Assembly (NCBI GenBank): GCA_046153645.1
Contig: JBJXGI010000093.1
Location: forward strand, 1-33,287
Direction: 5' to 3'
Length of the DNA: 33,287 bases
From: Elusimicrobiota bacterium
Lineage (GTDB): Bacteria; Elusimicrobiota; Elusimicrobia; F11
Numbering within the stretch: position 1 is the stretch's first letter; every line of letters starts with the position of its first letter. The notes beneath the pieces are model-generated. The model saw nothing but the letters and a program-made list of their open reading frames with translations. It did not search any database and was not told where the DNA came from. Below, piece by piece: positions 3,265-21,083 of this stretch. Made by a program: the position numbers and the translations under genes.

Positions 3265-4373
3265 ATTCAAAATCGATAGCAGTTGTCTTTAGAGATTTAA
3301 AACCTATGACGGGCACTTTTACGATCGTCAAAAATGTATTCCCGTTATTGCGAAAAAAAGGATGGGAGATTCATCTCGTCTGTCACAAAACAGATACCGA
3401 ATATTTTAAAAAAATGGGTGTCCATGTTCATAATGTTCCATTTATAAACATTGGCAAATCGGCTCGTCGCTGGTTGTTTGATAAATTGTGCCGTTTAAAA
3501 ATATCTAAAATTAAACCTCAAATTGTTTGGGGGCATGGGGACATTCTCAAGCAAGACATTCTTAGTTTGCACAATTGCGTTCATAAAACATTTGAGTTAA
3601 CGCGTCCAAATGAAAAATTAAAAGAGCAGGGAATGTATGGTTTTCATCGAAAATTATTGGAGAGACAAAATTTTAAACTATTGTTAGCAAATTCGAATTT
3701 GATGAGAAAAGAAGTGGAGGCACGCTTCGATGTTCCTTCATCAAAAATAAAAGTGGTTTATCCTGGCATTGATATCGATCGGATTTCTCAAAACTACACG
3801 ATCATTGAAAAAAATAAAGCCCAAAAAGAATTGGGGCTCCAGTCAGATAAAATTTATTTAGGTTTTGTTACTTCAGGAGATTTTAAAAAACGAGGATTGG
3901 ACCGGCTTATAGATATTCTTCAATCACTCAGTTTAGAAGTAAAAAAACAAGTAGGTGCTTTTGTGGTAGGAAAAGATAAAGAAACGCTTTTTTATCTTGA
4001 AAAAGGGAAAAAGTGTCAGCTCGAAGGCGATTTTTTCATATTTCAACCGAGAGAGTCTCCCCAAATTTTTTATGACGCGCTAGATTTGTTCGTCTACCCT
4101 GCCTATTTTGAAGAATTTGGTTTAGCCCCCTTAGAGGCCGCCGCCAATGGTTTGCCAGTCATCACAACCTGTTTTGTCGGAGCTTCCGAGTTATTGCGCG
4201 ATCATTCTCAGTCCGTGTTATTTCCAGAATACGATTTACTGTCGTTTAAACAGGAAATCGAAAAGAAAATTGAATCTAAAGCTTTTTCCAGAACCACGAG
4301 AGCACAATTCCTGCCTGACGGGCAAGGATACGCAAAGGAAGTGTTGGAACTTTGTGAGTCCTTTATAAGATAA
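3261..4373 (+). CDS. Glycosyltransferase family 4 (LPS core)
   Basis: FKKRGLD and EEFGLAPLEAAANGLPVI GT-B motifs; ATGA overlap with waaF. Confidence 0.85.
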   Translation: MNSKSIAVVFRDLKPMTGTFTIVKNVFPLLRKKGWEIHLVCHKTDTEYFKKMGVHVHNVPFINIGKSARRWLFDKLCRLKISKIKPQIVWGHGDILKQDILSLHNCVHKTFELTRPNEKLKEQGMYGFHRKLLERQNFKLLLANSNLMRKEVEARFDVPSSKIKVVYPGIDIDRISQNYTIIEKNKAQKELGLQSDKIYLGFVTSGDFKKRGLDRLIDILQSLSLEVKKQVGAFVVGKDKETLFYLEKGKKCQLEGDFFIFQPRESPQIFYDALDLFVYPAYFEEFGLAPLEAAANGLPVITTCFVGASELLRDHSQSVLFPEYDLLSFKQEIEKKIESKAFSRTTRAQFLPDGQGYAKEVLELCESFIR

Positions 4374-4380
4374 GTCGACT

Positions 4381-4815
4381 TTATTTATTTTCCGATAACC
4401 ATTTTATACACGGCACTACACGAATTTTAACCCCTTTTTCCTTGATCGATTCTTCAGTATCCATAGTTATGATGGTGAGGTTGGATACGTTTAATTCCAT
4501 AGATGCTTGATGTAATGCGCGTAGTTCTCTCTCACGTGTTTTTAAAGCCGAAAGGTTTTGTGTCACTTGAATGAGTTCAAGATTCTTTGACCCTTGTCTT
4601 AGAAAAAAGTCCACTTCGTTACCAGTGCGTGTTTGATAATAAAAAAGATCAAAATTAGGCTTAAATCCTCGTCGCACCAGTTCGACAAAGACCATGTTTT
4701 CAAGTAAACGAGAGTCGTTAGATGTAACAGATTGATATGTGGCAGAAATAAACCCATTGTCATAAGCGTAAATTTTTCGATCAGCTTTCAATCGCATTCT
4801 CGTTTTGAGAAAATT
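4381..4815 (-). pseudogene. C-terminal DUF4143 fragment of an AAA_14/DUF4143 ATPase
   Basis: KIYAYDNG, LLENMVFVEL and GNEVDF..LIQV motifs. An in-frame stop lies just upstream (4816-4818) and the P-loop half is missing. Confidence 0.75.
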
Positions 4816-4911
4816 TTACAAGTAATTTACTTCTTCTTAAGGCGGAATTAAGCTCCCCATTTTATAATTGAGAGCATGTTAAGAATAATTTATAAACAGA
4901 GAAAACAGCTT

Positions 4912-7900
4912 ATGCGTTCTCGTTTAAATTCGAATTGTTTTATAAGAGTGTTTTTGTCAGTTGTTTTTCTTCTTACCCAAGTTTTATTTGCCCATAGTGC
5001 TGAAACAAGCATTTGGGCTGAAAGAAGAAAAGCTTTGCCAAGTGCCGCTATGACTTTCTTGCCGCCTTTAGGTCAGGTTTGGAAAGATAAAACTCAAGGA
5101 AGCGACGACCACAGAAAAAAATCTTTTTCAGCTTTACTTCCTTTCGGTACCATTCAGAAAATTCAAAACCCCATCCAAAAACCCCAAGGGACGGTTATTT
5201 ATATTCAAGATGTTCATGGCCATCTTGAAGCGCAAAAAAACATTTCTCAAATAATTCTTAAAATTTGGGAACAACACCCCAGCGCTCACCTCGGTTTAGA
5301 AGGGGCAGAAGGGCGCTTTTCGACGGAATCATATAGGCAATTTTCTCCAGATATGAATAAAAAGATGGGGTCATTTTTATTTAATGAGAACTTAATCACA
5401 GGAGCTGAATATGCCGGTTTTGTCACTCCGGAAAATCCAACGATTATTGGAGTGGAAGATGCCAAGTCGTATCTTGAAAATGTCGCAGCGATTAAAAAAG
5501 CGCTCCCTTTGCAAAACGAAGAATTGAAAGTAATAGATCTAGAAAAAAATATCCTGGGTATTCAAAAAGAAAAAGTTTACTCACCCCAACTTTTAGAACT
5601 CGATCAGAAATGGGAAAGCTATCAAAATGGAAATTTAAGTATTGGTGATTATTTAACGGCCCTCACCCTAACCCTCTCCGAGGGGATAATAGAAATTGGT
5701 GTCCCTTCTCCCTTTAGGGAGAGGGTTAGGGTGAGGGTGCCAGAGTCTATCTCTCTTTTCCTCAAAACTTGGCAATTAGAAAAAACTCTTAATTTTGAAA
5801 AAGCAGAACGCGAACGAAATCAGTTTTTATCCCAGTTGGTTGAAAAATTAAATAAATCAGATTTTGATTTTTTAATGGCCCAAAGCCAATTGCTTCGTAT
5901 GGGTGAGATGGCTTACCCTGATTATTACGCCTGGCTTAAAAAAATGGCTTTGGATCATGGGGTTTCTCTGAACCGAACGCCTGAGTTCGATAAATATATT
6001 CATTATGTGCTACAAGCCAATGCCATCGACGCGCAAATATTATTATCCGAAATGTCCCAATTTGAAAAAGAGGTTTGGTTGTCACTTTGTAAAACGGAAA
6101 ATCAAAAAATATTAGTTAAGGATTTTTTTCATCTCCACCTTCAGGAAAAATTAGTGAAGTTAATTTTGACACCATCGGAGTGGGACAACTATAAAAAAGA
6201 CGTACTTGGTCAAGGCGAAAGCGTACTTAGTACTAAGGTTCAGGAACGAAGAACGTCGTTAAGCAGTTTTGAAGACTTTTACAAATTCGCCGAAGCGCGC
6301 GATGAAAAGATGGTTAACAACTTCTTTAAAAACGTACTGAGTACGAAGAACCAAGAACTAAGTACGCCTCTCATTTCCATTCTTGTTACTGGCGGCTTTC
6401 ACTCCTCTGGAATCAGCGATCTTTTACTTAAGAAAAATTTCACTGTTGTTACGGTTACTCCTCACCTTCACATGAATAACCAAAGAAGTTTTGATGATCA
6501 AACTCAAGGGAATGAATACCTTAACGTTTTTACTCGAGAAAAAACGCCACTTGAAAAATTGTTTGAAGCGCCTCAAATTTCACTGGTAGAAACTCTTCGA
6601 ACAAACCCCATACCTGGCACAGGAATCTCTCCTCTCAATAAATCTGAAGGATATAGAAATTTAAAATTATTTTTAGAAAAAGGTTGGGTTGTCCAAGACC
6701 CGCAAAGCGGGGAGTGGATTGCCACCAAAAATCACTCCTGGGCCAAAGCGGGAACAAAAATTCAAGACGATGCCACTATCTTAAGTGCAGTTCAACGGGA
6801 GTGGTGGCGAAGCGTTTTTATTATGGCAATTCCGGCTGTTGCTGCTGTTTTCCTCGGGCCTTTGCATATGACAATTTCTCCTTCATTCGTTGTGGGGTTT
6901 GGGTTATTGGCCAGTGGAATTTTCATTGTGGCAACTCATCTCCAGTCGCATAGCCTTAAAGGTTTGATAAAGCTATTTGTCAATTCGTCTCCTCTTATTA
7001 CTCTGTTAAGTGTCCTGGCCTTTTGGGAAACCATTCTTTCTTTTAATCAAGTTAGTTGGAGTACTATTGTTGCGGCGACTCTGACGGGGCTCGTTGCCTA
7101 TAACCTTCTTCATTTTATTTGGGATAGGCTCGCCATACTTTTCCCGCAGTTGGGGTTGGCGCCGATGTCGGCGGAAGTTTCTTATGTAGAGTTTAAAACG
7201 AAATTTAGAAACCGTTTCGAAGTTTTATTTGAGGCTTGGTTAGGTAAATCAGGAAAACGCGGGAAAACTTATCTCGACAGTTCTGAAGAGATATTAAGCG
7301 ATGTGTTGACTTTAAACCCACATATTAATTTAGAAGAGGCCACCCTGGTTGAGATAAAAGGCATTCCACATGTTATCTATTTGGTGGGGAAAAACGTGGA
7401 AAACTCCAATCAAATAATTATTTTTGAGTTCAATATTGAATCTGCTGGAAGTAAAACTGAAACCACTATTAACCAGCGAATTCAAGCATTAGATAACCCA
7501 GTGAGATTAAAAAATTATGATTGTATCTTAACCCCAACAAGTGAATTGCGCATGTGGAGTTTTGATAATACCGTTAGAGATATCCACGATTTGGTGACAA
7601 AAACACTAAAGCTGTCTGACACCAACCATCCCGCGCATATGGTTTATGAAAAAGGAATTTCTTCCTTCACGCCTGCTCCAGAACCCATTCCAATGAAAGG
7701 GGGAAAAATACCTCGAGAGTTAAAAAAGGTTGATGAAAAAAAAGAATTAGGTCTATTTCCATTAAAGATAAGTGGTTTTAGGCAAAATATTTTCTTGATA
7801 TATGAAGATATTCTTAAGCCAAAAGGAGATGTTACGTCTGCTCAATTTGTTCTGATAGGGATGTTATTGCATGCCTACAGTTTAGACCCCAAAGAAATTA

Positions 7901-10401
7901 AAAAAATATCAGGTTTTTTCTCCAAGGATTCTATAACTGGTGCAACTAATTATTTATTAGATGCTATTGGAGATTCGCGTTTAGATCATATAACTCAAGA
8001 ACAATTAGCAGCTTTTATTAATAGAGCCGATTTGAAGGTTTCTCAAACGCAAAGAAATAAATATTTAGCAGTGCTTCCCTTGCTATTTCAAAATAAGCAA
8101 TCGGGTTTAGAAATAGACAGAGATCAATTTCTTGATAGTTCAATTTTATATATAGGGCTTACATTTGGAGTTCATAGACAGTTAGTTCTAAATGGAACAA
8201 AAACTGTTCGTGACATAGTCGTTAAATCGTCAGATGATTGGAAAGAAGTAGCTAATATTGGAAATGCAAAAATAAAGATAATAGAAGAATGTCTCCAGCG
8301 CTATGGTTTAAAAATTAGGATGACTAATGAAGAGATATTGGATTGGGAAAGTGCAGTGAATTTAGATGGCGGTACTTGGCTTGACCTCCCTGGTTACAAG
8401 CGAAACGCAGCTTGGATTGAAACATTCTTCGCTCGCATCATGGTTCCCGCTCTTATATTTATATTTTCTTTTTACAGATACGATGTTGGCTTTTGGGAAA
8501 GTTATGGTTTGGCTATTGGCGCGGCAACGTTTGTGTTTTGGGGGTTACATATTCTTAGAGGTTTTTCTTTTGATGGGAAACCTTATTCCTTCAAAAAAGC
8601 TTGGGCCGCGATGAAAAGTAGAGATGTGCTTTGGCTGACATTTTTAACTCCTTTTGCTGTCGCGCTCCCACCCTTATTGGTGCTGTTAGCGATTTATCAT
8701 TACCGGATTGATAGATCTTCTAATGAAAGATCAGATCAAAAAAAGAGAATAGACTTTTATAAAAAATTAGAAAATCAATTTTATCAATCAGGGCTCGATA
8801 GAAAGCAGATCAAAGCTAAAAGAGAAAAAATGTTAGATCAGAAAATGGATCCATTAATGTTTGATGAGGCCGAAGATCGCTCCGTTGAAATAACGATGAA
8901 TTTTTCTCCAGAACTCGGAAGTTTTTTTAGCCAAATTCTGGATAGAATTAAAGGTCAAATAAACGGGAAAATCTGGTTGGCTGATCCGAAGGATTACCAT
9001 ATCACTCTTTCTTGTTTGATTAGTCCTGATCAGAAAATGACCAATATTTCCCAAGATTACGATACGATGATGCGTCTTGCGATGATTGAAACTCTTTCTT
9101 ATTACCGCGATATTCACTTGGTTCGTCCGAGGTTGCAAATGACAACCAATGGAGCAGTTATAATTTTATGGGATGTGGAAGGTGATATTGAAGCAGCGCG
9201 TTCGCGCCTTCTAGGGGCATCGGGGAAAGTATTAGCTGATTCTCATAATGGCCCTCGAGTTATTGTGCATACAACCATTGCTCAAATTTTTTCTGAAGAA
9301 GAAGCTGATTATTCTGCGGAAAAAAAGATGCAACTTCAAACTATTTTGGATGAAGTTAATGCTCAGTTATTAACAAAAGAAATTAAACTCCCCGTAGTGC
9401 AAGCCCGTTATGCGGCTATTTATGGTTGGTTGGGAGTAAAAATAAATGAGTTAGGTCATTTCGATAACAAACTGACAACTGAAACCAATGCTTTGTCAGA
9501 TTTTGTGGCGGATTCTGTTGGTTTTGAGGATGCTAAAACTAATTTAGAGCATCTTCTTTTATCCGATATTGCCAGGAAGTCCTCGCCCAATTTTGAAGCG
9601 CTATTTGAAACACTTAAAAATCGTCCAGATGCTTATCGATTTGCTCTGACTATTTCCGCATTGATTTCTTATCATCAGCGTATTCAGTCTATATATACAG
9701 ATTCTTTTGTTGAGGAACTCCAAACATTAGTGCGTGAATTGGAATCTAATAACTCGGTGTCAAGCTTAATAACTCTTACTGGCCCGTTGCAAAAAGATCT
9801 TTTGAAAAATGGTTTTGTGTTTAACGGGAAAAAGATAAAGGGAGAAAAGGTTCAATATCTGCAAAAATTAATTGGAAAGTACTCTCAACTATTCCGTGGT
9901 CTTGTTCGATTCGTAGCCAGGGTTTTAGGGCAACAAACTGTCGTTATGATTCATGTCGATGACATTCTGTCTGGCTATTACGATCAAAATAACCACGAAA
10001 TATTCAGACAAAAGCAGAATTTAATTGATGAAATTATTTACGCTGTAAAAAAGAAAACGCCTATTGTGTTTATGGGGAAAAGCGATTTGAGTGAAGAGAA
10101 AATACGTGAAAAAGTCTCTCAATTTATTGGTTACAAAAACTTATTTGATTCAGGATTGAATGTTGTTGTTCAGCACCAAGGAGGTAATTTAATTCATCCC
10201 AGCAAAGTTTTAGAAGTTGCTCAAGCAAAATCAACCTTCATCAAAAATAGTCAAATTTTCTTGAGAATTTATTCGAGCGATCCTGGCGCGTTCAATCTTT
10301 ATGACGCTTCTGTTCGATTTATTTTCTTCGCCTTGTCAGAGCGTGTGGTTCCTTTAGCTTTGCGGATAAAAATAAATCATAAGATAGAGCAGCAAGCATA
10401 A
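4912..10401 (+). CDS. Large modular exported/membrane protein (~1830 aa): putative ChaN/Tiki-like N-domain, two TM modules, alpha-CTD-like and 2H phosphoesterase-like domains
   Basis: Uninterrupted 5.5-kb ORF. The ATG at 4912 gives a plausible signal peptide (..VFLLTQVLFAHSA); the track start is 4876. Motifs are detailed in the findings. Confidence 0.75.
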   Translation: MRSRLNSNCFIRVFLSVVFLLTQVLFAHSAETSIWAERRKALPSAAMTFLPPLGQVWKDKTQGSDDHRKKSFSALLPFGTIQKIQNPIQKPQGTVIYIQDVHGHLEAQKNISQIILKIWEQHPSAHLGLEGAEGRFSTESYRQFSPDMNKKMGSFLFNENLITGAEYAGFVTPENPTIIGVEDAKSYLENVAAIKKALPLQNEELKVIDLEKNILGIQKEKVYSPQLLELDQKWESYQNGNLSIGDYLTALTLTLSEGIIEIGVPSPFRERVRVRVPESISLFLKTWQLEKTLNFEKAERERNQFLSQLVEKLNKSDFDFLMAQSQLLRMGEMAYPDYYAWLKKMALDHGVSLNRTPEFDKYIHYVLQANAIDAQILLSEMSQFEKEVWLSLCKTENQKILVKDFFHLHLQEKLVKLILTPSEWDNYKKDVLGQGESVLSTKVQERRTSLSSFEDFYKFAEARDEKMVNNFFKNVLSTKNQELSTPLISILVTGGFHSSGISDLLLKKNFTVVTVTPHLHMNNQRSFDDQTQGNEYLNVFTREKTPLEKLFEAPQISLVETLRTNPIPGTGISPLNKSEGYRNLKLFLEKGWVVQDPQSGEWIATKNHSWAKAGTKIQDDATILSAVQREWWRSVFIMAIPAVAAVFLGPLHMTISPSFVVGFGLLASGIFIVATHLQSHSLKGLIKLFVNSSPLITLLSVLAFWETILSFNQVSWSTIVAATLTGLVAYNLLHFIWDRLAILFPQLGLAPMSAEVSYVEFKTKFRNRFEVLFEAWLGKSGKRGKTYLDSSEEILSDVLTLNPHINLEEATLVEIKGIPHVIYLVGKNVENSNQIIIFEFNIESAGSKTETTINQRIQALDNPVRLKNYDCILTPTSELRMWSFDNTVRDIHDLVTKTLKLSDTNHPAHMVYEKGISSFTPAPEPIPMKGGKIPRELKKVDEKKELGLFPLKISGFRQNIFLIYEDILKPKGDVTSAQFVLIGMLLHAYSLDPKEIKKISGFFSKDSITGATNYLLDAIGDSRLDHITQEQLAAFINRADLKVSQTQRNKYLAVLPLLFQNKQSGLEIDRDQFLDSSILYIGLTFGVHRQLVLNGTKTVRDIVVKSSDDWKEVANIGNAKIKIIEECLQRYGLKIRMTNEEILDWESAVNLDGGTWLDLPGYKRNAAWIETFFARIMVPALIFIFSFYRYDVGFWESYGLAIGAATFVFWGLHILRGFSFDGKPYSFKKAWAAMKSRDVLWLTFLTPFAVALPPLLVLLAIYHYRIDRSSNERSDQKKRIDFYKKLENQFYQSGLDRKQIKAKREKMLDQKMDPLMFDEAEDRSVEITMNFSPELGSFFSQILDRIKGQINGKIWLADPKDYHITLSCLISPDQKMTNISQDYDTMMRLAMIETLSYYRDIHLVRPRLQMTTNGAVIILWDVEGDIEAARSRLLGASGKVLADSHNGPRVIVHTTIAQIFSEEEADYSAEKKMQLQTILDEVNAQLLTKEIKLPVVQARYAAIYGWLGVKINELGHFDNKLTTETNALSDFVADSVGFEDAKTNLEHLLLSDIARKSSPNFEALFETLKNRPDAYRFALTISALISYHQRIQSIYTDSFVEELQTLVRELESNNSVSSLITLTGPLQKDLLKNGFVFNGKKIKGEKVQYLQKLIGKYSQLFRGLVRFVARVLGQQTVVMIHVDDILSGYYDQNNHEIFRQKQNLIDEIIYAVKKKTPIVFMGKSDLSEEKIREKVSQFIGYKNLFDSGLNVVVQHQGGNLIHPSKVLEVAQAKSTFIKNSQIFLRIYSSDPGAFNLYDASVRFIFFALSERVVPLALRIKINHKIEQQA
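5660..5737. repeat. REP/boxC-like palindromic element inside the large CDS
   Basis: Perfect 20-bp inverted repeat CCCTCACCCTAACCCTCTCC (5660-5679) / GGAGAGGGTTAGGGTGAGGG (5718-5737). Confidence 0.85.
6201..6367. repeat. Two degenerate heptamer tandem arrays inside the large CDS
   Basis: cgtactt/agtacta/aggttca/ggaacga/agaacgt (6222-6256) and cgtactg/agtacga/agaacca/agaacta/agtacgc (6333-6367); 11-bp inverted repeat 6221-6231 vs 6357-6367. Confidence 0.65.
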
Positions 10402-10440: not shown

Positions 10441-10902
10441 TTAAGCCGCTTTATAAAATGTGCCTGGATTAACATGAAATCGGTGGGCTAGACGTTCTAT
10501 TTGATCTCTGTTTAATTTTCTTCGTCCATTTAAAATATCTGAAACGACTGGTTGGCCCCCTAAATCGCTTGATAGATCTGTTTGTTTTAAATGAAATTGA
10601 TCCATGAAAAACTGAAGCATTTCTTCTGGTGTTCCTGATGAGTTGGGGTAAATCTTTTGTTCAAATTCTGATACAAAATGCGATACCGCTCCAAAATAAG
10701 TCTCAATTGCTTTTTTTTCTTTTTTGGAAAGCATTTTTTCTCCTATTAACTCAGAGAGCATGTCCAAAATACTGGAATAAATTTTATGCATGTTTTTATC
10801 TTTCATGGGCTGAGGAGGAAGGCGCAGAATCAATGTTTGAAATAAGTGACCATTTATTTGAGGGTACTTCCTTACCTTTTTTTCAATAGTGAGTGTTGTC
10901 AT
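10441..10902 (-). CDS. higA: HigA-type antitoxin (XRE HTH)
   Basis: LKQTDL..LGGQPVVSDILNGRRKLN HTH. The ATG at 10902 overlaps the higB stop (ATGA); the track start is 10914. Confidence 0.8.
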   Translation of the reverse strand: MTTLTIEKKVRKYPQINGHLFQTLILRLPPQPMKDKNMHKIYSSILDMLSELIGEKMLSKKEKKAIETYFGAVSHFVSEFEQKIYPNSSGTPEEMLQFFMDQFHLKQTDLSSDLGGQPVVSDILNGRRKLNRDQIERLAHRFHVNPGTFYKAA

Positions 10903-11030
10903 ATCTTTCTCCATTTATTTCGGTTATATTCGTCGTGTGTTAATATATGTGTGATTCTTAAAGCGTTTTGCATATAAATAACGATGGCAATCAATCGAAA
11001 GTTGTTTCCTCCAATGTCAAAGATCGTGGT
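10899..11030 (-). pseudogene. higB: 5'-truncated HigB toxin
   Basis: Hand translation TTIFDIGGNNFRLIAIVIYMQNALRITHILTHDEYNRNKWRKI* matches the HigB C-terminal half. An in-frame stop lies a few codons upstream and there is no start codon. Confidence 0.85.
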
Positions 11031-18312: not shown

Positions 18313-19446
18313 ATGTATTCCAGACTGCTTAAAGCTCCTAGAAATAAAAGTTTTTTCTTGTTGGGTCCCCGCGGTACCGGCAAAACAACATGGGTTCGAA
18401 CCAACTTTCAGGATTCAATCTATATTGATTTGTTAGAAGCGCAAGTTTTTAATGACCTGCTGGCTCAACCTCAAAGAATAAATTCTTACATTCCTCCTCA
18501 GTTTAAAAATTGGATTATTATAGATGAAGTGCAAAGAGTCCCGGATCTTTTACACGAAGTCCATCGATTGATTGAATCAAAGAAATACAAGTTTATTCTT
18601 ACAGGTTCAAGTGCTAGAAAGCTAAAAAGAGCAGGTCCCAATTTATTGGCTGGACGAGCTCTTTCATTATCAATGTCCCCTTTATCTGTGTCTGAAGTTG
18701 GTGACGATTTTGATATGAATAAGATTCTTCAATTCGGACAACTCCCCAGTATTTACTCGGAGGAAAACCCAAAGCAATATCTCGAATCCTATGTAAAAAC
18801 CTATTTGGAAGAAGAAATTCGGCAAGAAGGCTTAACGAGAACGCTTGCGGCTTTTGCACGGTTTCTTGAATCAGCTAGCTTTTCTCAAGGATCTGTTTTG
18901 AATGTTTCATCGGTTGCTAGAGACTGTGCAGTAGAGAGAAAAGTCGTAGAGAACTACTTCACTATTCTTGAAGATTTGCTCATTGCTTATCGTATTCCTA
19001 TTTTTTCTAAAAGATCTAAGCGCCGTCTCACTCTTCATTCAAAGTTTTATTTTTTTGATGTGGGGATTTATCGCACGATTCGGCCCATGGGTCCCTTAGA
19101 CTCCATAGAAGAAGTGGAAGGCATTGCACTTGAGACATTATTTTTTCAGGAGTTAATGACTTTAAATAATTCGCTTGGCTTGGGATATCGGCTGTATTAC
19201 TGGAGAACTTCGAATGGGCAAGAGGTCGATTTTGTGTTATATGGTCCACGCGGTTTGTTTGTGTTTGAAATAAAAAGAACTGGAAAATTTAAAATTGAAA
19301 TGTTAAGTGGGATTCAGTCATTTCTTAGAGAGTATCCCATGGCTAAGTCTTATTTAGTGTACATGGGAGAGCGAAGTTTATTTGAGGGTAAAACTCAGAT
19401 CATTCCCGCTAAAAAAATTCTGCAAAATTTGATTAATATTCTATAG
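18313..19446 (+). CDS. AAA_14 ATPase with DUF4143 domain
   Basis: GPRGTGKT, IIDEVQR, LTGSS, LAGRA, KFYFFDVG and EVDFV..FEIK motifs. Confidence 0.9.
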   Translation: MYSRLLKAPRNKSFFLLGPRGTGKTTWVRTNFQDSIYIDLLEAQVFNDLLAQPQRINSYIPPQFKNWIIIDEVQRVPDLLHEVHRLIESKKYKFILTGSSARKLKRAGPNLLAGRALSLSMSPLSVSEVGDDFDMNKILQFGQLPSIYSEENPKQYLESYVKTYLEEEIRQEGLTRTLAAFARFLESASFSQGSVLNVSSVARDCAVERKVVENYFTILEDLLIAYRIPIFSKRSKRRLTLHSKFYFFDVGIYRTIRPMGPLDSIEEVEGIALETLFFQELMTLNNSLGLGYRLYYWRTSNGQEVDFVLYGPRGLFVFEIKRTGKFKIEMLSGIQSFLREYPMAKSYLVYMGERSLFEGKTQIIPAKKILQNLINIL

Positions 19447-19459
19447 GCTGCCTTACTTT

Positions 19460-19500
19460 TTTTGTAAACAAATTAAGTGACTTTGTTGTGTTTTTTTGAA
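19460..19500. repeat. Direct repeat, copy 1 (41 bp), flanking the Fic cassette
   Basis: 39/41 identical to 20529-20569. Confidence 0.9.
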
Positions 19501-20405
19501 TAATCTCTGATGGCGTCTAATGTTGTCATCCAATTGCGGCCAAATTTAACTGAGGGTAATATTCCGCGCCTTGCCAATAAACTTAAATATTCTTGTGAAT
19601 AGGGCGTTTTTTGTGCAGCATGAGCCAATGTAATATAACCTTGTCGTTCGTCGGTTTGTTTGGGTGGGGTTAAGGCTTGTAAATAGATAATAAGGGAACG
19701 CTCTATAGATCGAGCAATGAAATGAAAATAATCTTCGTTTTTTCCTTGATCTGCTTCTTGTAGGACCCGGTAGTATTTTCTCCTATCTACTTTTAAAATG
19801 ACGGCAGGGGGATAACCTTTCCGCATGAGAACAAAATTCATCAAAAGACGAGCGGTACGACCGTTCCCATCTATAAACGGGTGAATAGACACAAATTGAT
19901 GATGAAGACGAGCTGCTAGTTCTAGCGGGTCCATTTTTTTCTGATTTAGTTGAAACCATTCAAATAGCGTATTCATTAAGCTTGTCACTTTTAATGGGTT
20001 AGGAGGAATGTGGGTCGCGCCTAAAATCCTAACCGAATGACGGCGATAATGACCAGCTTCTTCTTCATCGATATTCTTTAGGATTAGTCGATGTAGTGAG
20101 CAAACCAATTCGTCATTAAGCTCATGGTGATCTTGTGTATATTTTTCAAGAGTCTGAATGGCTTCTTTATGATTGGTTGCTTCAAAGTGTTCGCGAAGAG
20201 GTTTCCCTGAAATGGTCAGCCCCTCATTTAAAATCAAGGCTGTTTCTTTCAAGCTCAAGGTGTTCCCTTCGATAGCGTTAGAGTTAAATGTCCACTCAAT
20301 GGCCATTTGTTGGCGCAATTTTTCCAGCGCCAATTTAGGGAATGGCCTTAAAGAATCAAGCTTTTTCTTTTTTTCTCGAATTGATATTTTTAAATTGAAG
20401 CTCAT
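19473..20405 (-). CDS. Fic family protein with C-terminal HTH_17-like domain
   Basis: Canonical HPFIDGNGRTAR; inhibitory-type SNAIEGN motif; C-terminal YSQEYLSLLARRG..KFGRNW. Confidence 0.9.
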   Translation of the reverse strand: MSFNLKISIREKKKKLDSLRPFPKLALEKLRQQMAIEWTFNSNAIEGNTLSLKETALILNEGLTISGKPLREHFEATNHKEAIQTLEKYTQDHHELNDELVCSLHRLILKNIDEEEAGHYRRHSVRILGATHIPPNPLKVTSLMNTLFEWFQLNQKKMDPLELAARLHHQFVSIHPFIDGNGRTARLLMNFVLMRKGYPPAVILKVDRRKYYRVLQEADQGKNEDYFHFIARSIERSLIIYLQALTPPKQTDERQGYITLAHAAQKTPYSQEYLSLLARRGILPSVKFGRNWMTTLDAIRDYSKKHNKVT

Positions 20406-20569: not shown

Positions 20570-20663
20570 AGAATCAAAGCACTATTGAAAATTGCTAGCA
20601 CGAATCATTAGTGAAATGTGGGGAAATGCCCTGCATTTTTTTTATGCCCGGGAGGCGAGTATT

Positions 20664-21083
20664 ATGACGAAGATGTTTGTAGGAAGTTTGCCGTTTGATG
20701 TAACAGAAGAGCAGCTCTTTGATTTGTTTAAACCATTTGGCCAAGTTGGAAGCGCTAAATTGATGACAGATCGAGAAACCGGGCGTTCCAGAGGTTTTGG
20801 ATTCGTGGAAATGGAAGATGCGCAAGCTCAAGAAGCCATTGCAAAATTGAACGGTAGCACAGTGGGATCAAGACAAATTGTTGTTAACGTTGCTCGCCCC
20901 ATGGAAAAAAGAACAGGTGGTGGTGGCGGTGGATTTGGTGGCGGACGCGGCGGCTTTGGTGGAAACCGAGGCGGTGGCGGAGGCGGCGGTGGACGTGGTG
21001 GATTTGGTGGCGGACGTGGTGGTGACCGAGGTGGTGGTCGCGGCGACCGTGATGGAAATAAAGGCGGATTTAAGCGCTGGTAA
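20664..21083 (+). CDS. RRM RNA-binding protein with Gly/RGG-rich tail
   Basis: RNP2 MFVGSL and RNP1 RGFGFVEM; GGAGG Shine-Dalgarno favours ATG 20664 over the track start at 20592. Confidence 0.92.
   Translation: MTKMFVGSLPFDVTEEQLFDLFKPFGQVGSAKLMTDRETGRSRGFGFVEMEDAQAQEAIAKLNGSTVGSRQIVVNVARPMEKRTGGGGGGFGGGRGGFGGNRGGGGGGGGRGGFGGGRGGDRGGGRGDRDGNKGGFKRW

Follow-up and report, generated by a model that had tools for sequence, protein, structure and literature searches.

The window analysed here, 33,287 nucleotides of the forward strand of contig JBJXGI010000093.1 (positions 1 to 33,287) in the assembly GCA_046153645.1 of an Elusimicrobiota bacterium, carries a gene for a giant modular membrane protein. 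A single open reading frame (ORF) at 4912-10401 on the forward strand, to which all features of the gene belong, encodes 1829 residues with the C-terminal sequence QQA; residue numbers count from position 4912 of this translation (P0001). The likelier start is probably an in-frame ATG at 4876, which adds 12 residues, because this codon sits 22 nucleotides after a promoter element shared with the gene's paralogues, among which the spacing is usually 21-23 nucleotides. The whole gene would then occupy 4876..10401 and encode 1841 residues. A biofilter study contributes assembly contigs of four runs, possibly the source sample of the assembly and hence not independent of it; wherever these contigs cover the region they match it at 99% or more, with no other letters, gaps or joints. 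No RNA run was among the sequencing runs listed as holding it. The initial annotation had read the ORF as an exported N-terminal domain followed by alternating membrane modules and cytoplasm-type cargo, and this modular layout is borne out. Hydrophobic stretches lie where it had placed them: one at residues 7-31, in the leader, four within residues 631-737 (nucleotides 6802-7123), and two strong ones with a third, weaker one within residues 1166-1266 (nucleotides 8407-8710). A whole-protein Pfam scan gave no useful match and NCBIfam an RNA polymerase alpha C-terminal domain (alpha-CTD) alone, weakly. The gene is real and far from ordinary. Its product is a giant modular membrane protein of a variant kind, distinguished by its defined chassis, and its function is one that we infer.

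The protein is one member of a large family in which the head is constant and the middle variable. The N-terminal 500 residues recur in 48 ORFs of the same genome, 204 to 10,189 residues long from stop to stop; together these amount to 106,760 residues, or 12% of the 2.6-Mb assembly, and family members are mostly of 1,300-4,400 residues. Among 42 paralogues, the share of the sequence behind the head that the best partner covers has a median of 0 and a maximum of 0.37. A search of 1.84 billion proteins with residues 630-1829 returned just five matches, namely the protein itself, its closest paralogue, two fragments that share its 2H segment and one alpha-CTD repeat protein, and searches of 11 other genomes of its family did not find the two cargo blocks of the present gene. 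The proposal of a chassis with variable cargo is strongly supported by these results; full-length colinearity of the homologues, which would have argued for a fixed architecture, fails because cargo differs between paralogues. Constant across the family are the signal-type leader and the head of TIKI/ChaN fold, together with an upstream promoter element of 40 bp and a tail that ends in Ala; protease-like membrane cassettes also count among the parts of this chassis. Among 39 scanned paralogue sequences, about half of them without any match, the cargo includes sigma-70 regions, methyltransferases, AAA+, vWA, helicases, metallophosphoesterase, HATPase and cyclic nucleotide-binding (cNMP-binding) domains. 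Two family genes look split into successive ORFs (G000:C23:17491-20204 and C80:20555-28463).

The 80 loci kept from a genome collection are all titled Elusimicrobia/Elusimicrobiota or Ca. Obscuribacterium, and protein-database matches to the head add Endomicrobiaceae and six named Omnitrophota (22-29% identity), so that the likeness to N-termini from Elusimicrobiota and Omnitrophota, suggested in the initial annotation, holds. Head matches number 15-48 in each of 17 of the 31 related genomes and zero in the other 14; in a sample of the phylum they occur in 75 of 251 genomes. At the level of families, 45 of 60 genomes of f17 match and none of the 81 of f7. One f17 genus with genomes of 0.9-1.3 Mb has 1-9 first-look candidates per genome, against mostly 16-38 in larger genomes, these candidates not being copy numbers. 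If f17 corresponds to Endomicrobiaceae, as the named protein matches lead one to infer, the family would shrink in reduced, endosymbiont-sized genomes. The name Endomicrobium proavitum does not appear among the 120 head matches listed.

The leader (4912..5031) is basic and then hydrophobic, with a predicted cut after A27 and a W-x-E-R motif behind it (W35-R39). A motif of the form W-x-[EDQK]-R follows the leader in 113 of 136 members, Ala is the commonest residue at position -1, and the leaders fit the -3/-1 pattern of signal peptidase. Internal signal-like helices were seen in paralogues and were not used for any reading. The head itself (5092..6636) is predicted to have the TIKI/EreA/ChaN fold, with a parallel beta-sheet core, interrupted by a large insertion of helices. 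Its residues D100, H102, E130, R463 and H497 are identical in 42 of 42 aligned paralogues. In a further set, which includes nine own-genome duplicates and whose locus-derived half was found with a pattern containing the Asp and the first His, they are kept in 196-202 of 196-202 sequences, except for two sequences at the Asp. The head shares the order of these residues, and their first spacings of 2 and 30, with RRSP (5w6l), in which the available text of PMC6254334 gives E3900, H3902, E3930, R4001 and H4030 as essential.

A model of the head (pLDDT 84) was compared with 48,161 chains, and the five top ranks all went to the TIKI superfamily: ChaN (2g5g) came first, at Z 8.2, root-mean-square deviation (rmsd) 5.5 and 190 aligned residues, in company with EreC (6xcq; Z 8.0, rmsd 4.3, 170 aligned), the two Bcr proteins Bcr135/136 (Z 7.9 and 7.8) and HopBA1 (Z 7.8, rmsd 4.1, 169 aligned). 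The first unrelated chain stood at Z 7.2; PMT and RRSP domains ranked below the top five. At the curated cut-off of PF04187 the head of the present protein has no match, and sub-cut-off matches occur in 3 of 23 paralogues at E values of 3e-5 to 2e-4; searches of Protein Data Bank sequences with the head and with the head alignment gave nothing significant. Owing to the invariant residues, the RRSP-like spacing, the coherent fold ranks and the sub-cut-off PF04187 matches, the head likely carries a hydrolase site, which may be that of a peptidase rather than an esterase. With the TIKI/TraB/EreA/ChaN superfamily it shares the core fold and the set of acid-x-His, Glu (+30), Arg and His; it differs in having Asp for the first Glu and an insertion of about 270 helical residues, and in serving here as a constant N-terminal chassis rather than as cargo. 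Four head-only proteins of 567-623 residues, with classical signal peptides and no membrane anchor, are encoded in three other genomes (L184:1646-3505 on the reverse strand, L185:994-2862 and 4191-5891 on the forward strand, and L186:1642-3381 on the reverse strand). Because these relatives are made for export in this way, the head is presumably exported as a rule. The two L185 genes sit among other signal-peptide genes, ahead of a histidine kinase-like gene.

Two membrane modules punctuate the chain. Module 1 (6796..7167) has four helices, carries E630, H676 and H734-x3-D738, and ends with L-A-P-M; we regard it as a degenerate CPBP-like unit. Module 2 (8368..8712) is a CPBP-like cassette with E1170-T-x3-R1175, H1213 and H1263-x3-D1267. 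According to the available text of two reports (PMC11980579; 10.1101/2023.06.07.544157), Glu, His and HxxxN/D are the catalytic residues of CPBP proteases. In this genome, 19 of the 48 family ORFs carry the succession E...H...HxxxN/D behind hydrophobic stretches, 25 times in all; 27 of 110 homologues carry it 37 times, and 1504 background ORFs 8 times. This amounts to 7.5 per 100 transmembrane (TM) segments in the family and 0.48 in the background, a 15-fold difference, and the total of 62 stands against 3-9 in 20 local shuffles. Three of 94 family modules match PF02517 at E values of at most 0.02, and two own-genome modules pass the PF02517 cut-off. Two family modules match Peptidase_M50 weakly, S2P/M50-like domains occur in other members, and a rhomboid domain is present in one homologue.

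A profile of 43 modules, from which 10 of 53 had been left out as duplicates or poor aligners, matched 18 stand-alone CPBPs at E 2e-5 and a probability of 77%, a match that is partly circular because the modules had been picked by motif. The Glu of motif 1 (EExxxR) is present in 37 of these 43 modules, the selection filter having required a Glu, and the second Glu in 5; module 2 reads E-T-F-F-A-R at this point and module 1 retains the Glu alone. Eight modules were found in Endomicrobiaceae-side matches, and seven of them keep the full EExxFR. In leave-out tests against 930 background windows and 300 shuffles, 2 of each reached the score of module 2, and 5 windows and 16 shuffles reached that of module 1 without composition correction. 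On this sequence comparison the CPBP likeness is supported for module 2 and marginal for module 1. Module 2 also behaves as a unit: it recurs in three relatives at other positions, with the likeness beginning at residue 1153 and stopping exactly at D1267, and in the closest paralogue it is 58% identical where the head is 44% identical. Its model (pLDDT 76, pTM 0.53) has three helices, the last two fused. A Protein Data Bank sequence search with the module alignment gave nothing significant, iterative hidden Markov models built from the modules did not expand, and the ESM Atlas returned no usable match for module 1 or cargo block 1. A P-hydrophobic-small motif after HxxxN, considered as a common cut site, was found in 24 of 80 cases against 16.7 expected and was dropped. 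Compared with the CPBP/Rce1 type (PF02517; MmRce1, MrtX), the modules share the order and nature of Glu, F-x-x-x-His and His-x-x-x-Asn/Asp on a four-helix core, the latter two motifs falling on the second and fourth helix; they differ in being embedded and repeated within one chain, in being reduced to the core and in a longer b-c loop, with 55 rather than 35 residues between the histidines.

A second type of cassette, with HExxH and G-P-P, was seen in other members (L021/L022 in G000:C86, L028, L014 and L010), eight tandem copies of it in the 10,189-residue paralogue. Above-cut-off canonical CPBP domains also lie inside long ORFs, of up to 13,760 residues, in genomes without a head match (L154/L155 in G023:C15, L157 in G030:C123, L158 and L159); in the one that was inspected the a-b loops are basic, as in the ordinary orientation. 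Giant proteins punctuated by proteases may thus form a wider class.

Between and behind the modules lie the cargo domains. Cargo block 1 (7180..8091) has no homologue that we could find; by eye it had suggested a decayed nuclease fold or a DnaA-type helix-turn-helix, readings that the searches did not support and that we dropped. It is followed by a divergent alpha-CTD-like domain (8113..8331, residues 1068-1140). The alpha-CTD recognised in the initial annotation is present as a likeness, yet a weak one, as both library scores fall below cut-off: NCBIfam gave E 2e-4, and PF03118 gave 17.7 bits against a cut-off of 23.8 (E 0.003, 59 of 67 positions). The same region matches a protein with 11 alpha-CTD repeats at E 3e-12. 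That protein, P0124, is an unrelated chain of 1031 residues with a signal-like N-terminus, which suggests that the alpha-CTD serves as exported cargo outside the head family too.

The segment after module 2 (8734..9516) resembles 2H phosphoesterases, and here the earlier assignment is supported by both HxT motifs and a profile match. The motifs, H1363-I-T and H1453-T-T, lie about 90 residues apart and are kept in the homologous segments P0122 and P0123; one of these two segments matches PF13563 weakly. When a profile was compared with 18 stand-alone 2H proteins, both motifs were aligned, with E 2e-4 and a probability of 45%. The 2H alignment found nothing significant among Protein Data Bank sequences, and no shorter stand-alone homologue of the segment occurred among 1301 candidates. 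The closest paralogue (L001:4034-4606, reverse strand) has a decayed 2H-like segment, matched pairwise at E 0.02, before its second module; in the present protein the 2H segment comes after module 2.

The chain closes with an unassigned soluble domain (9529..10398) that ends in an amphipathic helix and a terminal Ala. Terminal Ala is found in 30 of 32 complete own members and 26 of 34 complete foreign ones, compared with 76 of 988 background ORFs, and in 78 of 112 database homologues, many of them partial; an amphipathic pattern precedes it. When a profile of family tails was built with the present protein left out, a search at E 0.1 missed the tail domain of this protein, which is linked to the closest paralogue only. 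The organism's own transfer-messenger RNA (tmRNA) tag ends in ALAA, and the Ala tail may be a ClpX signal.

The promoter element (4814..4853) consists of four short repeats with an 11-bp period (TTACA, TTTAC, TTAA-N7-TTAA), followed by a TATAAT hexamer at 4863-4868, 7 nucleotides upstream of the ATG at 4876. A weight matrix for the 40-bp element, trained on 37 upstream regions, finds 28 sites of at least 20 bits in the own genome, 23 of them at family genes, and 1 in a shuffled genome; at 15 bits or more it finds the element upstream of 55 of 68 foreign head genes and in none of 68 control windows. A strict pattern, tried on 5 genomes, had performed near control level, and the matrix was used instead. 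The family forms one regulon, which seems also to include other exported proteins. The element stands upstream of a UPF0164-like protein, a small lipoprotein-like protein and a 537-residue repeat protein, and before two headless giant exported proteins of 6,623 and 8,730 residues; the loci concerned are L181, L182, L183, G000:C79:12434 and C86:48994. These non-head genes are candidates for partners of the family. In many own-genome members a -10-like hexamer lies only 6-9 nucleotides before the ATG, which may point to leaderless transcripts.

The genes on either side lie outside the system. Upstream is a 5'-truncated DUF4143 gene (4381..4797, reverse strand; profile positions 73-157 of 160), and downstream, also on the reverse strand, are a HigA-like antitoxin gene (10441-10914) and a HigB remnant (about 10899-11030). 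The flanks had been described as decayed accessory loci and the gene as standing alone between them: the decay is confirmed on both sides, and the isolation holds for the locus but not for the genome, where the gene is one of 48 family ORFs. The upstream DUF4143 copy is truncated at the point where the family promoter begins, as though the giant gene had been inserted. DUF4143/AAA ATPase-type genes, of which the window holds a second at 18313-19446 (forward strand) besides that at 4381-4797 (reverse strand), recur next to family genes as the largest neighbour cluster (12 ORFs on 9 contigs/loci). A second accessory patch of the window holds a gene for a Fic-domain protein with a C-terminal helix-turn-helix (19473-20405, reverse strand) and one for a glycine-rich RNA-binding protein (20592-21083, forward strand).

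How this chain is placed in a membrane is central to what it might do. There is no TM segment between the head and the module Glu in 19 of 24 first modules. In the modules, Lys and Arg are common in three places, ahead of the Glu, behind the first His and behind HxxxN; the two loops that separate these places have almost none. Stand-alone CPBPs carry 2.22 such residues in the a-b loop, 1.67 in the c-d loop and 0.28 after the His, whereas family modules carry 0.35, 0.07 and 1.16. The loop charges are thus inverted relative to stand-alone CPBPs: of 43 family modules 23 are inverted, 3 canonical and 17 ties, compared with 0 inverted and 16 canonical among 18 stand-alone CPBPs of the same lineage. 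Because the first filter had disfavoured charges in these loops, the count was repeated with a charge-blind filter, which gave 15 inverted and 1 canonical among 25 family modules, with 0-1 chance matches, and 0 inverted and 3 canonical among the 4 stand-alone proteins that passed. By the positive-inside rule these charges would put head and cargo on a shared inside face of the membrane, although the head looks exported. Either the leader fails to export the head, or the exported chain inserts elsewhere from a cytoplasmic side.

This geometry bears on two explanations in which nothing is cut or transferred. An ordinary one-component receptor, with a periplasmic TIKI sensor, a membrane span and cytoplasmic outputs, expanded by domain shuffling, would account for the signal peptide, the ligand-capable fold and the cytoplasmic outputs, and 39 of 207 members do have a single TM segment after the head. 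It is nevertheless very improbable: the first module here has an even number of helices, four, and 72 of the 207 members have no TM segment within about 260 residues after the head, while among the 39 single-TM members the head side is more basic in 21 and less basic in 10. Because head and cargo would lie on the same side of the membrane, the exported N-domain and cytoplasmic cargo of the initial annotation do not add up to the topology of a plain receptor. Alternatively, the chains might remain uncut as membrane-tethered envelope proteins, with head and cargo exported, head and cassettes as pseudo-enzymes and the whole chain acting in adhesion, as a coat or as a scaffold, a role similar to one proposed for some Omnitrophota giants. 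With canonical CPBP topology, both what precedes the Glu and what follows HxxxN would lie outside, matching an exported head with no intervening TM segment; many modules lack the motif residues, ChaN is a binding protein, and non-catalytic CPBP proteins are reported. We consider this improbable, given that the loop charges oppose the canonical orientation, under the charge-blind filter too, that sigma-70, alpha-CTD, helicase, AAA+ and cNMP-binding cargo would be useless in a periplasm, and that the five head residues are invariant over about 200 sequences.

A self-processing polyprotein is where we are led instead. Cleavage of the chain by its own parts is, to our mind, rather probable, and delivery into another cell is a little short of an even chance; the combined reading that we put forward tentatively is that of a self-processing multi-cargo polyprotein acting in the cytoplasm of a partner bacterium. 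The leader would route the chain into the Sec pathway, and the conserved mature N-terminus, the tail or both would address it to a second transfer step. The four-helix cassettes would then insert as hairpins from the side holding head and cargo. Judged by the charges, this side would be a cytoplasm, and the simplest candidate is the cytoplasm of a bacterial partner or prey. Cassettes and/or head would cut the chain, freeing or tethering its cargo. The cargo may act on transcription, through the alpha-CTD here and sigma-70 regions in paralogues, and, in the case of the 2H domain, on nucleotide or RNA phosphodiesters, while the terminal Ala might engage ClpX-type unfoldases for turnover or pulling. 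For processing into separate units, which the initial annotation had entertained, a candidate mechanism has been found in the putative TIKI-type head and CPBP-type modules. Transfer is favoured because it alone explains an exported head with inside-facing cargo, and because it would suit both the expense to the genome and a cargo private to each gene; the 12% share of the genome and the private cargo suggest a conflict system.

The same self-processing chain could instead reside in the producer's own inner membrane, with all soluble domains facing its own cytoplasm. Here the leader would anchor the head or fail to translocate it, and the Ala tail would be a ClpXP degron. A signal would prompt the cassettes to set free sigma factors, alpha-CTD and nucleotide enzymes, much like regulated intramembrane proteolysis or an anti-phage response. 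We hold this to be possible but unlikely. The positive-inside pattern would be satisfied without a second cell, the cargo is of cytoplasmic types, the ending of the tmRNA tag would suit such a degron, basic residues flank the leader on both sides, and the module helices are hydrophobic enough for release by Sec. Against these stand the fit of the leader to the signal peptidase pattern, the recurrence of the same leader, W-x-x-R motif and head in the anchorless head-only proteins, and the signal-peptide proteins encoded by co-promoter genes; furthermore, 15-48 copies with unshared cargo would be odd for housekeeping regulation.

Several observations weigh against a self-cleaving, transferred polyprotein. 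On an insertion scale, the module helices are more hydrophobic than the cores of stand-alone CPBPs, so that one would expect Sec to pass them into the membrane of the producer itself; weak hydrophobicity as a route past Sec, which had seemed apparent against a polytopic background, is reversed in the comparison with stand-alone cores and was rejected. A composition classifier did not separate exported from cytoplasmic character for heads or cargo, and clustering of 1029 flanking ORFs revealed no conserved partner or secretion gene. As to the enzymes, most own ORFs lack a motif-bearing module, and neither module of the present protein alone matches a protease family, PF02517 and a CPBP profile included. 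Both have Asp in place of the motif-4 Asn and no second Glu, and in the standard leave-out test, with composition correction, module 1 did not stand out from background, its score being reached by 336 of 930 windows and 123 of 300 shuffles. The model of module 2 gave no clear structural match: no Rce1-type chain was among its top 50 structures, and Foldseek was also empty. For the head, Z scores of 7.8-8.2 are modest and close to the level of unrelated models, Foldseek found no match with the model, and TIKI-fold proteins include esterases and a haem binder.

New here are the anatomy and start of this gene, the inversion of charges in the cassettes, the exported relatives that consist of the head alone, and the test of the promoter across genomes. 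It is acknowledged that the giant multi-domain membrane proteins of Elusimicrobiota and of Omnitrophota pose an unsolved problem; self-cleavage has been proposed for them without cut points or enzymes. The family, which fills 12% of a 2.6-Mb genome and extends to gut Endomicrobiaceae, offers concrete small units: five head residues, a sharp-bordered 115-residue cassette, a promoter of 40 bp and a tail ending in Ala. Should the cassettes prove to cut, intramembrane proteases would have a new use here, in an orientation that appears to be reversed; should the chains prove to be delivered, the bacteria would have a way of life and a transfer route not known so far.

The nearest known systems are the giant proteins of Omnitrophota, including the Archaeovorins. 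The available text of the reports describes signal-peptide and TM proteins with enzyme cargo and proposes self-cleavage by C39 or S8 domains (10.1101/2023.11.21.568195; 10.64898/2026.06.07.730766; PMC10066038), and says that N-terminal regions are mostly without identifiable domains (10.1101/2023.11.21.568195). Two reported findings serve as precedents for transfer: one giant Omnitrophota protein is up 3-fold on prey contact (PMC10066038), and giant proteins pass between bacteria in 'Chlorochromatium aggregatum' (10.64898/2026.03.19.712371). Elusimicrobiota are reported to be rich in huge, unassigned proteins (PMC11573180); the portions available of an Endomicrobia genome study (PMC11257099) and of an Obscuribacterium preprint make no mention of giant proteins. 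Within the limits of these texts, the present family shares with the Omnitrophota giants a signal peptide, clustered TM helices, cytoplasm-type enzyme cargo, near-unique sequences and proposed self-cleavage. The Omnitrophota giants differ in their C39/S8 peptidases, SecA-like domains and lengths above 10,000-30,000 residues, with no TIKI head or CPBP cassette named in that material, whereas the family described here has up to 48 members per genome with a common promoter and Ala tail. None of the Archaeovorin features (a SecA DEAD-like domain, a C39/S8 peptidase, a length above 30,000 residues) occurs in this protein or in 39 scanned paralogue sequences; one database homologue has an internal S8 domain. 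In the literature searched, with most subscription journals and preprint domain catalogues outside its reach, we found no description of a TIKI-headed, CPBP-punctuated family.

With polymorphic toxin systems the family shares a conserved trafficking end, a variable payload and many paralogues; it differs in that the payload is internal and multiple, the C-terminus is conserved and no immunity gene lies behind, the next gene being HigA-like and on the opposite strand. MARTX toxins and viral polyproteins combine interchangeable cargo on one chain with a built-in protease that frees the units. MARTX repeats and a cysteine protease domain gave no Pfam or NCBIfam match in the present protein, and the Sec-type leader, the membrane cassettes between the cargo and a cargo that points to bacterial targets further set it apart from MARTX. 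The parallel lies in the way of working: one chain, swappable cargo and a candidate built-in protease. It is tempting to speculate, as a doubtful prospect, that Elusimicrobiota possess an undescribed, co-regulated contact-delivery system of dozens of Sec-exported polyproteins, whose inverted, core-only protease cassettes would enter the partner's membrane from its cytoplasm. Cut by them, the chain would yield sigma factors, alpha-CTD decoys and metabolic enzymes with which the partner is taken over. Such a system would be a bacterial counterpart of the viral polyprotein, and it may also explain the giants of Omnitrophota.

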